From the NCBI RefSeq assembly GCF_053078305.1, contig NZ_CP166879.1: a stretch of DNA of 64,000 bases, one strand, 5' to 3'. Shown piece after piece: positions 39,097 to 41,476 of this stretch (the first letter of the stretch is position 1; each line of letters starts with the position of its first letter). The translations under genes and the position numbers were made by a program. The notes beneath the pieces are model-generated. The model was not told the DNA's origin. It saw only the letters and a list, made by a program, of their open reading frames with translations, and did not search any database.

Positions 39097-39774
39097 TCAC
39101 CAGTTACCGTAAGGATAAGTTTTATCTTTGATAAATTCCTTAATATCTTCATCATATCCATATGTGAAATCACTTTTAGTAACCCCCTTACACATATTCA
39201 TTTTATCACCCGATACTGTAGTAATTTTAGCATCCAACTGAGGTACCACCGGATTACCGCGATCTCCCAGCCAGACTCTTACCTTCCCTTCAGGTGCCAG
39301 ACCAATAATCATCGTTGAACGATAATAGGTTTCGTTCCAGCGGTTGTCTGTGTAAGGCGTAACCATCTGCTCCCAGGTTCCTTTTTTAAAAAAAATCAGA
39401 GTTTCATAACTCTTTTTATCAATTATCGAATCCCAGCAAAAACGCAACATCAGAGGTAATGCTTTCCCCTTGTTATAATACGACTCAGTCGCGCCCAGAT
39501 GCTCATTCCAGCGCCCTACACTGACCTGACTCGGTCTTGTGGTATCAAGATACTGATAAGTCGTCTTATAACCTTCCCCGTCCACCATCAATGCCTGAGT
39601 GGCCAGCGCAGGCAGAGCCTTTGGATAAATAAAGAGAAATTTCCATTCATCATAGGGTAATTTTTTATAACCCCATTCAGTCTTATCCGAATCAGCATAC
39701 TGTGAGCTAACAGAATTACACCCAGTTAACAATGCCAATAATGGTGCGATAAAAATGATTTTATCTCTGGTCAT
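39097..39774 (-). CDS. Periplasmic lipoprotein, probable Tli1-type immunity protein for the adjacent phospholipase effector
   Basis: 225 aa; lipobox LLTGC; immediately downstream of the Tle1-like gene. Confidence 0.6.
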   Translation of the reverse strand: MTRDKIIFIAPLLALLTGCNSVSSQYADSDKTEWGYKKLPYDEWKFLFIYPKALPALATQALMVDGEGYKTTYQYLDTTRPSQVSVGRWNEHLGATESYYNKGKALPLMLRFCWDSIIDKKSYETLIFFKKGTWEQMVTPYTDNRWNETYYRSTMIIGLAPEGKVRVWLGDRGNPVVPQLDAKITTVSGDKMNMCKGVTKSDFTYGYDEDIKEFIKDKTYPYGNW

Positions 39775-39793
39775 GTATTGTCATCCTGTAGCG

Positions 39794-41476
39794 TTAAACA
39801 CCAGACATCATAACTTTAGTATTTTTTACTGCGTTATCATTCAATCGCTGCTGATCATCCATGTACCATACAGAACGAATCCAGCGATCATTTGGTTTAT
39901 TCGGAAAAACGAACGCCTTATTACCTTTAGGACCAAAGCGATGGATAAAAATCTCTCCCGTTGTAGGATCCACCCATAAATTACCATCAGACTCAATATT
40001 CCAGTTGGCAGAACAATGGGTGTATTTTCCGATAATATACAACTCTTCCTCAGTAAAAGCCTGAGGCTCTTGCCCCAAACGTACCGCTTTTCCCTGAGCA
40101 ATGGCTTTATCAACAAAAGGAATTAATTCAGGAGATAAATTCATATCTGGATTTTTGGGGTCAATTGGAGCAAACAATACCCCTGCTTCCTGAGCAGCAT
40201 CCAGCATCACACGCAGGCAAACATTAGCCCAGTCATTAGGTACTGCCATACGCTCAAAAAATACTGCGGCTCCCACCTGCTTTTGTATCACGCCAGCCCG
40301 ACGTTGATTGCTGTTGTTCACACCTACGGAACGAATTTTGGTGGTTAGTTTTCCATGAGGCAAAATATGTTTTAAGGCTGGCAGAGTCATCAACATTTTT
40401 CTGGCTTGCTCTGCATTACGGTATACTCGCGTATCTGTTTCTCTGGTATCGTCACTGACAATTTCAAATGCCGGGCAACTCAGAAACAGACTTTCATTTT
40501 CCTGCAGAGGTGAACCTACCGGATTGTAACCACCTCCAATATCTGAATGCGCCCCTGGTAAAGCCAGTTCGGGCCACATACCTTTAATACTGTTCAGGCT
40601 GAAATTATATCGGTATTCATTCATTGCAGTAATCTGGAAAACTTTCTTCGCGATGGAAGGACGCAATTCCAGCTTTACTCCCGGGTTGCTACGTCCATTA
40701 ATATCGAAGAAATTACTGATTCCACCAATAGCTGCGACAGTATCAAAAAGCCCCAGAAAACGGACTTCACCCGAAGGTTTACCATCATAAAAATCGCCTC
40801 TGAGCCCTTTAGCAATAGCTCTGGCTATAGCAGGATCCTGTTCCATAACCCGATTAGCAAAGTGCCTTGCCGCCGCTGCTCCCCGGCTAAAACCAAAAAC
40901 ATCAAACTGGATTTTTGCGATACAAAAATCAGGATTTAAATTGAACCCCATAAATTCTGATAACGCTTGGGTGATTCGTTCCATTGCCTCGTCGGTTTTC
41001 GTCACCACACCTTCAAATATATCCAGAATACTGGTGCCTAATCCCATGCCAATGACTGAATCTGCTTCACCAGCCGCAGTCCCTATCCCGGAAATGTAAG
41101 TCTGAATTTGTGCTTCAACCTGACTTTCCAACAAAGTCTGATCTGCTACGTAAAGTGAATTTAGCCAGTGGATATTGGAATAATATCCACGATAACTGCC
41201 ATTCGAGATACTGTTCTTGTTAATTTCTTCAAGAAAGTCCTCACAGCTTTGTGCATCTTTTTGATTTACCCCCTGTCTGGCTGCACTACACTCATTAAAT
41301 TTCATCAGACGAGATGCTGTATTCTCCCGATTGTTTCCGGTACCATCGAAAAATATACCAATGGTTAAAGTCACACCCCGCGCCGGTTTTTTCTTTGCAA
41401 CAACAACTTTCCAGTCATTATGAATACTGGTTTTATGGGTGGCATCTGTTACATCATATCCCTGATATTTTGTCAT
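39794..41476 (-). CDS. T6SS phospholipase effector, Tle1 family (DUF2235 alpha/beta hydrolase)
   Basis: 560 aa; hallmark motifs GIFFDGTGNN and GFSRGAAAARHF (GxSxG); start overlaps the vgrG stop (ATGA). Confidence 0.85.
   Translation of the reverse strand: MTKYQGYDVTDATHKTSIHNDWKVVVAKKKPARGVTLTIGIFFDGTGNNRENTASRLMKFNECSAARQGVNQKDAQSCEDFLEEINKNSISNGSYRGYYSNIHWLNSLYVADQTLLESQVEAQIQTYISGIGTAAGEADSVIGMGLGTSILDIFEGVVTKTDEAMERITQALSEFMGFNLNPDFCIAKIQFDVFGFSRGAAAARHFANRVMEQDPAIARAIAKGLRGDFYDGKPSGEVRFLGLFDTVAAIGGISNFFDINGRSNPGVKLELRPSIAKKVFQITAMNEYRYNFSLNSIKGMWPELALPGAHSDIGGGYNPVGSPLQENESLFLSCPAFEIVSDDTRETDTRVYRNAEQARKMLMTLPALKHILPHGKLTTKIRSVGVNNSNQRRAGVIQKQVGAAVFFERMAVPNDWANVCLRVMLDAAQEAGVLFAPIDPKNPDMNLSPELIPFVDKAIAQGKAVRLGQEPQAFTEEELYIIGKYTHCSANWNIESDGNLWVDPTTGEIFIHRFGPKGNKAFVFPNKPNDRWIRSVWYMDDQQRLNDNAVKNTKVMMSGV

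Follow-up and report, generated by a model that had tools for sequence, protein, structure and literature searches.

A locus downstream of vgrG in E. coli very probably represents the Tle1-Tli1 cargo module of T6SS-1

In a stretch of 64,000 nucleotides (the window), a vgrG gene is followed by a gene for a 560-aa protein and by that of a 225-aa lipoprotein, which raises the question of what cargo this spike carries and against which target it is directed. We consider it very probable (roughly 0.93) that the locus is the vgrG-tle1-tli1-paar cargo module of an E. coli T6SS-1 of the Sci-1 type, with Tle1 as antibacterial lipase and Tli1 as its immunity protein. What carries this reading can be observed directly: the identities of the genes and their conserved order, the motifs, sequences nearly identical to those of characterised proteins, and a complete secretion apparatus. 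The features concerned are:

41473-43992, minus strand: vgrG, 839 aa, spike and carrier protein (ORF list and HMM domains)
41473-41476, minus strand: ATGA overlap between vgrG stop and tle1 start (direct sequence reading)
39794-41476, minus strand: tle1, 560 aa, predicted phospholipase effector (ORF list, PF09994, match to PDB 6SJL_D)
39097-39774, minus strand: tli1, 225 aa, predicted immunity lipoprotein (ORF list, PF11153, lipobox)
38799-39065, minus strand: PAAR gene, 88 aa, tip protein, last gene of vgrG-tle1-tli1-paar (PF05488, 8e-24)
26401-54097, minus strand: complete T6SS-1 (Sci-1-type) cluster (Pfam per gene and RefSeq names in 99.2%-identical E. coli genomes)

None of the four module genes is truncated or frameshifted, and their starts and overlaps are conserved. 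Every feature listed in the earlier note made from the letters of this DNA lies on the minus strand at the positions given there. The overlap of the tle1 start with the vgrG stop, already claimed in that note, was found by direct reading: the vgrG TGA shares 4 nt with the tle1 ATG in the context ...GAA ACA GAATGACA..., which suggests translational coupling of both genes. Between the tle1 stop and the tli1 start lies a gap of 19 nt, and AGGA is found 9 nt upstream of the tli1 ATG, both read directly from the junction. Promoter- and terminator-like sites in 37500-45200 were not above shuffled sequence and indicated no internal transcription unit; together with the overlapping or tightly spaced genes, this fits co-transcription. 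A plus-strand ORF at 38794-39318 (174 aa) was rejected along with further antisense ORFs nearby as mechanical artefacts, since all of them overlap well-supported minus-strand genes.

The identity of the effector candidate is revealed by several approaches. Employing a Pfam HMM search, DUF2235 (PF09994, T6SS_Tle1-like_cat) was detected in the 560-aa protein with 58.4 bits (E = 9.2e-16), while the gathering cut-off is 27 bits. The two DUF2235 hallmarks on which the earlier note had relied, GIFFDGTGNN and GFSRG, are present at residues 40-49 and 195-199, the latter comprising the GxSxG nucleophile. Comparison against PDB 6SJL chain D by phmmer spanned residues 1-560 with 1216 bits and E = 0, which excludes a chance resemblance; 529/560 residues (94.5%) are identical in a gap-free alignment of two proteins of equal length. 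The chain in 6SJL has the Tle1 sequence of enteroaggregative E. coli (EAEC) strain 55989. Ser197 (GFSRG), Asp245 (FDTV) and His310 (GAHSD) align with identical residues in 6SJL_D, and for Tle1-EAEC the positions Ser-197/Asp-245/His-310 were given together with the loss of activity of a S197A variant (bioRxiv 10.1101/2024.03.05.583533). Residues 1-82 are identical to 6SJL_D as well, the predicted VgrG-binding N-terminus included, with the first substitution at residue 83. Neither a signal peptide nor a hydrophobic segment was found in Tle1. An even closer match, 558/560 residues (99.6%), is the protein of strain 04-00955, named "T6SS effector phospholipase Tle1-EAEC" by RefSeq, and 42 complete E. 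coli genomes that share this gene order contain proteins to which RefSeq gives the names Tle1-EAEC and Tli1-EAEC. NCBIfam HMMs matched neither Tle1 nor Tli1. Since the matches in Pfam and the PDB settle the matter, this does not argue against family membership; rather, the RefSeq names probably derive from similarity rules instead of HMMs. Judged by its sequence, the 560-aa protein is thus an allele of the experimentally characterised EAEC Tle1.

The 225-aa protein contains DUF2931 (PF11153) at residues 37-223, with 99.8 bits and E = 2e-28 in the Pfam HMM search. With a cut-off of 22.2 bits for this family, both HMM searches that the earlier note had proposed as a check, for DUF2235 and DUF2931, gave scores above the gathering thresholds. 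The gene next to tle1 had also been called a lipobox lipoprotein, and rightly so: the N-terminus is MTRDKIIFIAPLLALLTGC, with a hydrophobic segment at residues 6-24 and the lipobox L-T-G-C at 16-19 (Cys19), while Pfam LPAM_1 gave 17 bits and stayed under its cut-off of 20. Residue +2 after the lipobox Cys is Asn, not Asp. According to the established rule, Asn rather than Asp at +2 fits Lol-dependent outer-membrane sorting, and an outer-membrane location of Tli1 would fit this residue. In total, 216/225 residues (96%) are identical to the tle1-proximal Tli1 of EAEC 55989. The Tli1 proteins of strains VTB97432v and 1105 agree at 222/225 residues, and relatives of the protein bear the RefSeq name Tli1-EAEC. 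A PDB sequence search for a solved relative of Tli1 returned nothing meaningful (best E = 0.68). From these comparisons, the lipoprotein is Tli1. The periplasmic immunity envisaged in the earlier note is supported by DUF2931, the lipobox and the match to EAEC 55989, with the qualification that Tli1 is reported to be an outer-membrane lipoprotein facing the periplasm and not a soluble periplasmic protein.

VgrG comprises a gp27-like base, a gp5 OB/beta-helix, DUF2345 and a C-terminal transthyretin-like (TTR) extension. Its Pfam matches are PF05954 (3.5e-52), PF04717, PF13296 and PF10106 (DUF2345, 1e-44 at residues 614-761), besides matches to TIGR01646/TIGR03361. Against 6SJL_A (E = 0), VgrG is 85.7% identical overall, yet in a mosaic manner: identity is 71% for residues 1-384, 98% for 385-839 and 100% for 761-839. 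This last segment, the TTR domain, is identical in 79/79 residues to the Tle1-binding domain of EAEC VgrG1. The suggestion that the extended VgrG C-terminus serves direct cargo binding therefore agrees with this identity and with the published mechanism, since Tle1 loading directly on the VgrG extension has been described for the EAEC pair (PMC10715212, PMC9860674, PMC6730261). The PAAR protein is identical in 88/88 residues to that of EAEC 55989, and an 88-aa PAAR protein, EC042_4537, is encoded downstream of tli1 in EAEC 042 (PMC10715212).

As the earlier note stated, such an arrangement is known: effector, immunity protein, VgrG loading and complex structure are all published. Tle1-EAEC is described as a periplasm-acting PLA1/PLA2 whose immunity protein is an outer-membrane lipoprotein (PMC9860674); its published activity is mainly PLA1 and more weakly PLA2. 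Phospholipase A1/A2 activity and periplasmic toxicity are among the properties reported for this 94.5%-identical protein (PMC9860674, PMC6730261), and EAEC Tli1 is reported to form a 1:1 complex with Tle1, at nanomolar affinity, in which the phospholipase is inhibited (PMC6730261). The EAEC VgrG1-Tle1 complex was solved as PDB 6SJL/6SKI (Flaugnatti et al. 2016 Mol Microbiol; 2020 EMBO J, via PMC10715212), and the account of it in the latter source includes fold complementation with the VgrG TTR domain, inhibition of Tle1 by VgrG and a PAAR cap. By homology, we infer enzymatic activity, delivery and immunity for the local module. Tle1 would be an alpha/beta-hydrolase phospholipase that acts via Ser197-Asp245-His310, with PLA1 exceeding PLA2 activity. 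Without an export signal of its own, it would ride in three copies on the VgrG trimer, where an N-terminal Tle1 strand would complete the transthyretin-like fold at the VgrG C-terminus and further contacts would run along the gp5 needle. In this bound state Tle1 would be kept inactive, and PAAR would cap the spike. Sheath contraction would then drive the spike with its cargo into an adjacent Gram-negative cell, where Tle1, once released in the periplasm, would hydrolyse membrane phospholipids and kill the prey. Tli1, anchored in the outer membrane and facing the periplasm, would bind Tle1 1:1 with nanomolar affinity and block its activity, protecting the producer and its kin.

The surrounding cluster would provide the apparatus for such delivery. 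Its gene order is tssB, tssC, tssK, tssL, tagL (OmpA), hcp, clpV/tssH, two ORFs and vgrG, followed by tle1, tli1, paar, ORF382, tssM, tssA and ORF265, and then by tssF, tssG, tssJ, tssE and a tagA-like gene (ImpA_N + VasL). All T6SS core genes (13/13, Pfam) are present and intact around the module. That the module defines the payload of this T6SS, as proposed earlier, applies to EAEC T6SS-1 in the literature; here, further cargo might be encoded outside the 64-kb window, and the two ORFs between clpV and vgrG are uncharacterised. Elsewhere in the window, an assignment of the ORFs at 6339-10703 and 11344-13479 as Rhs protein and second VgrG was dropped. They most likely encode a YadA-like adhesin and IreA, because both are among the features annotated in E. 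coli on the DNA that matches here. Both count among the virulence-type genes of the island.

Among known systems, T6SS-1 of EAEC 17-2/042 (EC042_4534 onward) shows the same vgrG-tle1-tli1-paar order within a Sci-1-type cluster. It shares the catalytic triad, a Tle1 that is 94.5% identical over its full length and a VgrG that is 98% identical in its C-terminal half and 100% in the TTR domain. In contrast, the gp27-like base (1-384) of the local VgrG is only 71% identical to EAEC VgrG1, the local Tle1 carries 31 substitutions, mostly in cassettes 107-125 and 436-455, and EAEC 55989 possesses two tandem tli1 genes instead of one. Two copies would also be present in EAEC 042, judging from the locus tags of tle1 (EC042_4534) and PAAR (EC042_4537). 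The nearest relatives of the module are found in Shiga-toxin-producing E. coli lineages, namely O22:H8 strain 154, whose Tle1/Tli1 module has been described (bioRxiv 10.1101/2024.03.05.583533), 04-00955 and 1105. DNA identity across the flanking region with T6SS and microcin genes amounts to 99.2%, and strain 04-00955 shares 838/839 residues of VgrG and 558/560 of Tle1. However, strains 04-00955 and 1105 carry two tli1 copies, whereas strain 154 has a single tli1 as found here, yet with the alternative forms of both the 107-125 cassette and the Tli1 tail. More distant are P. aeruginosa Tle1 (PA3290, PDB 4O5P) and other DUF2235 lipases of the Tle1 family (e.g., PDB 9J3F). They share the alpha/beta-hydrolase core, GxSxG and the Ser-Asp-His triad and are likewise vgrG-linked and periplasm-acting with an immunity partner, but similarity is local, around the catalytic core (E = 1.4e-7 and 5.6e-11), and with 779-884 aa and extra membrane-anchoring domains they are much larger than the 560 aa found here. 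Furthermore, P. aeruginosa Tle1 has been reported to act as a PLA2 (PMC9860674), and its locus, as the title and abstract of PMC13133936 indicate, includes an adaptor protein, in contrast to direct binding to the VgrG TTR domain. Finally, Tle3-Tli3 (AIEC LF82) and Tle4-Tli4 (APEC) occupy the same vgrG-tle-tli-paar slot of E. coli T6SS-1. They also employ outer-membrane lipoprotein immunity and a DUF2345/TTR VgrG extension that binds the lipase (PMC9860674, PMC6730261), while their lipase and immunity families differ from Tle1-Tli1, and no cross-inhibition of Tle3 by Tli1 was reported (PMC9860674).

Comparison of nine loci revealed a patchwork. Of the 31 Tle1 substitutions relative to 6SJL_D, 23 cluster in cassettes 107-125 and 436-455, each of which is dimorphic across these loci, with all four combinations seen. 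The Tli1 C-terminal tail (201-219) likewise exists in two alternatives, SDF.YGYDED and HPDGYVYYGD, and strains with two tli1 copies usually have one tail of each type. Two copies occur in EAEC 55989 and several close relatives, as opposed to one here and in the complete genomes of strains 154, VTB97432v and MLI121. Over its first 600 nt the local tli1 does not differ from the proximal copy in strain 04-00955, while its last 78 nt are similar to the distal copy in strain 1105, so that the 3' end looks chimeric. From these alignments, Tle1, Tli1 and VgrG appear as mosaics of few alternative segments, with one or two tli1 genes per locus.

One might speculate that the Tle1 cassettes and the Tli1 tail mark immunity-specificity groups in an arms race within E. 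coli. The two alternatives at each site and the usual pairing of both tails in two-copy strains would agree with this, as would the cassette 107-125, which is of the same type in both strains of the sample that have the SDF tail only (the window and VTB97432v). Yet no strict pairing of Tle1 cassettes with Tli1 tail types was found across the nine loci, and one and the same Tle1 allele (558/560) occurs with the SDF tail only in the window and with the HPDGY tail only, in both copies, in strain 04-00955; thus the resident toxin does not determine which tail is present. Given in addition a comparison of just n = 9 loci and a pattern that mosaic recombination without functional consequence accounts for equally well, we regard specificity groups as unlikely.

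Two further scenarios could be envisioned. Tle1 might mainly be an anti-host (trans-kingdom) toxin that acts on eukaryotic membranes: about 50% of RAW264.7 macrophages were lysed within 16 h by purified Tle1-EAEC, but not when the protein had first been incubated with Tli1 (PMC9860674), the target of Tle1 is tabulated as 'Prokaryotic/Eukaryotic' (PMC6730261), and the YadA-like adhesin and IreA are located on the same island. However, in the macrophage assay purified protein was applied externally and not delivered by a T6SS, and a dedicated gene for a periplasm-facing immunity lipoprotein adjoins tle1, which makes sense only if sister cells are targets. A mainly anti-host role is therefore very unlikely. 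Alternatively, the module could be non-functional here, through a silent T6SS, an inactive toxin allele or a chimeric tli1 remnant. A single tli1 whose 3' end matches another copy type than its 5' part, Tle1 cassettes unlike those of the characterised allele, and a low module G+C (0.41-0.43 against 0.55-0.58 in core genes), which marks an exchangeable cassette, could be taken in this direction. Nevertheless, the four genes are undisrupted with conserved starts and overlaps, the Tle1 triad and motifs are intact, the Tle1 N-terminus that would bind VgrG shows no difference from the solved complex, nor does the TTR domain, 13/13 core genes are intact, and a single tli1 recurs in strains 154, VTB97432v and MLI121. 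Loss of function is thus very unlikely, and we favor the antibacterial Tle1-Tli1 module of T6SS-1, which none of the observations contradicts.

Taken together, the Tle1-Tli1 module described here adds no new biology, and its genes are already named by public annotation. The antibacterial cargo of the strain's T6SS-1 is nevertheless identified, and the effector-immunity module could be recognised from raw sequence. If specificity groups did exist, each Tli1 tail type would guard against some Tle1 alleles only and tandem tli1 copies would widen immunity. The module would then also serve competition among Tle1/Tli1-carrying E. coli strains, and a strain that has just one, chimeric tli1 might kill such strains but also fall victim to them. 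Variation in tli1 copy number and segment mosaicism may be used for testing allele-specific immunity, which is mildly useful at the population level.

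In the window, the genes vgrG, tle1, tli1 and PAAR are co-directional on the minus strand, based on the ORF list:

vgrG, 839 aa: 41473-43992, minus strand
tle1, 560-aa ORF: 39794-41476, minus strand
tli1, 225-aa ORF: 39097-39774, minus strand
PAAR (PF05488), 88-aa ORF: 38799-39065, minus strand

The interval 39097-41476, in which an earlier note had seen a Tle1-type phospholipase followed by a lipoprotein immunity candidate downstream of vgrG, extends exactly from the tli1 stop to the tle1 start. As had been claimed, the tle1 start overlaps the vgrG stop: ATG and TGA share 4 nt at 41473-41476 (GAATGACA; direct reading). 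The spacer between tle1 and tli1 measures 19 nt, with an AGGA upstream of the tli1 ATG. Co-transcription of the module genes fits, because the genes overlap or are separated by short gaps, and because promoter- and terminator-like sites showed no excess over shuffled sequence in a scan of the module region. The G+C content of tle1 (0.43), tli1 (0.41) and paar (0.42) is low compared to tssM (0.55) and clpV (0.58), which is typical of exchangeable effector cassettes; in different E. coli the vgrG-tle-tli-paar slot is occupied by Tle1, Tle3 or Tle4 (PMC6730261).

The 560-aa protein carries both DUF2235 hallmarks the earlier note had named, GIFFDGTGNN at residues 40-49 and GFSRG at residues 195-199 (direct reading). 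The HMM searches proposed there as a check were positive as well, with 58.4 bits for PF09994 (DUF2235, now T6SS_Tle1-like_cat; cut-off 27) on this protein and 99.8 bits for PF11153 (DUF2931; cut-off 22.2) on the 225-aa lipoprotein. A search of solved structures gave an end-to-end match (E = 0) to chain D of PDB entry 6SJL, the Tle1 chain of the (VgrG)3-(Tle1)3 cryo-EM complex of enteroaggregative E. coli (EAEC) (PMC10715212). Without gaps, 529 of 560 residues (94.5%) are identical, including all of residues 1-82. The catalytic positions Ser197, Asp245 and His310, and the loss of activity in S197A, go back to Flaugnatti et al. (2016), as cited in bioRxiv 10.1101/2024.03.05.583533; all three residues are kept in the window Tle1 and the triad is intact. 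Neither a signal peptide nor a hydrophobic segment was found in the 560-aa sequence.

The gene following tle1 indeed encodes a lipobox lipoprotein: the N-terminus MTRDKIIFIAPLLALLTGC contains a canonical L-T-G-C at residues 16-19 (direct reading). The Asn at position +2 would be compatible with outer-membrane sorting by the established Lol rule. Tli1 shares 216 of 225 residues with the tle1-proximal Tli1 of EAEC strain 55989, whose Tle1 equals the PDB chain sequence, and 222 of 225 with Tli1 of the E. coli strains VTB97432v and 1105. Consequently, the observation of the earlier note is fully confirmed and its interpretation is right.

VgrG comprises the domains Phage_GPD, Phage_base_V, T6SS_Vgr and DUF2345 (HMM search) and matches 6SJL chain A, EAEC VgrG1, with E = 0 in the structure search. 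The overall identity of 85.7% is unevenly distributed, with 71% in the gp27-like base (residues 1-384), 98% in residues 385-839 and 100% in the C-terminal 79 residues, the transthyretin-like (TTR) domain. Judged by these values, VgrG is clearly a mosaic relative to EAEC VgrG1, which implies a recombination junction near residue 385, the effector-binding half staying with the tle1 cassette. The base belongs to another lineage than that of EAEC VgrG1, whereas the effector-binding half is conserved. Across the mosaic gene (41473-43992, minus strand), the needle, DUF2345 and TTR domains are 98-100% identical to 6SJL_A. PAAR is identical to that of 55989 (88/88 residues).

The mechanism is drawn from the literature on near-identical proteins, and for the window allele we infer it by homology. 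Tle1 would act as a cargo effector. As described for the EAEC complex (PMC10715212), its N-terminal beta-strand would complete the TTR extension of VgrG in its fold, additional contacts would involve the gp5 needle as well as the needle base, and the lipase would be inhibited while bound to VgrG. PAAR would cap the beta-prism. Tli1 is reported as a lipoprotein of the outer membrane to which Tle1 binds 1:1 with nanomolar affinity, losing its activity (PMC6730261, PMC9860674); the same would hold here. All sequence features required by this mechanism are present in the window, and the solved complex has exactly the same Tle1 N-terminus and the same VgrG TTR domain.

The differences of the module from the reference are minor. 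Among the 31 substitutions between Tle1 and the PDB chain, 23 fall into two cassettes, residues 107-125 (SLYVADQTLLESQVEAQIQ in the window vs ILYHPDQVLKKDQTSAQIK in the PDB chain) and 436-455 (APIDPKNPDMNLSPELIPFV vs EPIRQTNTELQLPSELIFLA). In E. coli each cassette exists in two forms, and the four possible combinations were all found (n=9 loci). The Tli1 C-terminal tail is dimorphic too, SDF(T/S)YGYDEDIKEFI(K/R)DKT vs HPDGYVYYGDTPDFIKGKI, and tails and cassettes were seen in all combinations. Many genomes contain a tandem tli1 pair, often with one tail of each type; the copy number among close E. coli relatives is one or two (loci L001-L008), and it is one in the window as well as in the strains 154, VTB97432v and MLI121. 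In its first 600 nt the window tli1 is identical to the proximal tli1 found in strain 04-00955; over its last 78 nt it resembles the distal one of strain 1105. The gene thus looks chimeric at the nucleotide level, as expected under recombination between tandem copies, or for an ancestral single copy. One might speculate that the dimorphic segments of Tle1 and Tli1 define immunity-specificity groups within E. coli, which we consider improbable. The same Tle1 allele occurs with one tail type only (window) or with the other type only (04-00955), so the resident toxin does not determine which tail is present. This argues against allele-specific immunity, although a comparison of nine loci is too small to be decisive.

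The module lies within a complete T6SS-1 cluster, in which all 13 of 13 core components are intact (Pfam):

26401-54097, minus strand: TssB, TssC, TssK, TssL, Hcp, ClpV/TssH, VgrG, TssM, TssA, TssF, TssG, TssJ, TssE

TagL (OmpA domain) and a TagA-like ImpA_N+VasL protein are encoded in the cluster as well. Several further ORFs were observed in and around it:

44071-44975, minus strand: two small low-G+C ORFs between clpV and vgrG, of 226 aa (TTG start; single hydrophobic, glycine-rich segment at about 135-158; counterpart in 04-00955 and 1105 a RefSeq hypothetical protein of about 213 aa) and 83 aa (G+C 0.37; hydrophobic segment)
37647-38795, minus strand: 382-aa ORF between PAAR and tssM, starting 3 nt past the PAAR stop and overlapping the tssM start by 8 nt; N-terminal hydrophobic segment at about 21-48; 373/382 identical to an EAEC 55989 'hypothetical protein'
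31973-32770, minus strand: 265-aa ORF between tssA and tssF, no Pfam hit
23046-25727, minus strand: 893-aa protein that combines superfamily-1 helicase domains (AAA_11/AAA_12) with DUF2726 at its C-terminus, encoded immediately past the tagA-like end of the cluster where G+C is low (0.39-0.44)
55123-56344: two ORFs without Pfam hits, between T6SS and microcin genes
56000-59000: very low G+C (0.30-0.40), between T6SS and microcin genes

The 226-aa, 83-aa and 382-aa ORFs gave no Pfam, NCBIfam or PDB sequence matches. Lying next to vgrG, the first two would be well placed to form a second effector/immunity pair, as yet uncharacterised, or to provide an accessory protein. The 382-aa ORF looks like a gene that is conserved in T6SS-1 clusters. 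The true start of the 265-aa ORF is probably further downstream, because its listed form overlaps the tssA 3' end by about 100 nt. The helicase-domain protein may have a defence-type function or belong to a mobile element. Judging by how matching E. coli genomes are annotated, an accessory island surrounds the cluster (1-23000 and 55000-64000). One side carries type I secretion components together with genes for a YadA-like adhesin and the siderophore receptor IreA, for which ORFs 6339-10703 and 11344-13479, respectively, are the most likely candidates; on the other side is mchF, a microcin export gene that most likely corresponds to ORF 59040-61160.

The flanks share 96-99% identity with E. 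coli genomes, which places the window on an E. coli chromosome. DNA of the module from vgrG to PAAR matched 72 of 5426 complete E. coli genomes, in 42 of them over at least 80% of its length; tle1-tli1 alone occurs in 42 genomes at a DNA identity of at least 95%, each time on the chromosome. The closest relative is strain 04-00955 (VgrG 838/839 and Tle1 558/560 residues identical). RefSeq names the matched genes 'tle1: T6SS effector phospholipase Tle1-EAEC' and 'tli1: T6SS immunity phospholipase A1-binding lipoprotein Tli1-EAEC'. Taken together, the tle1/tli1 pair represents one allele of a system already characterised at the genetic, biochemical and structural levels, for which annotation pipelines already have names.
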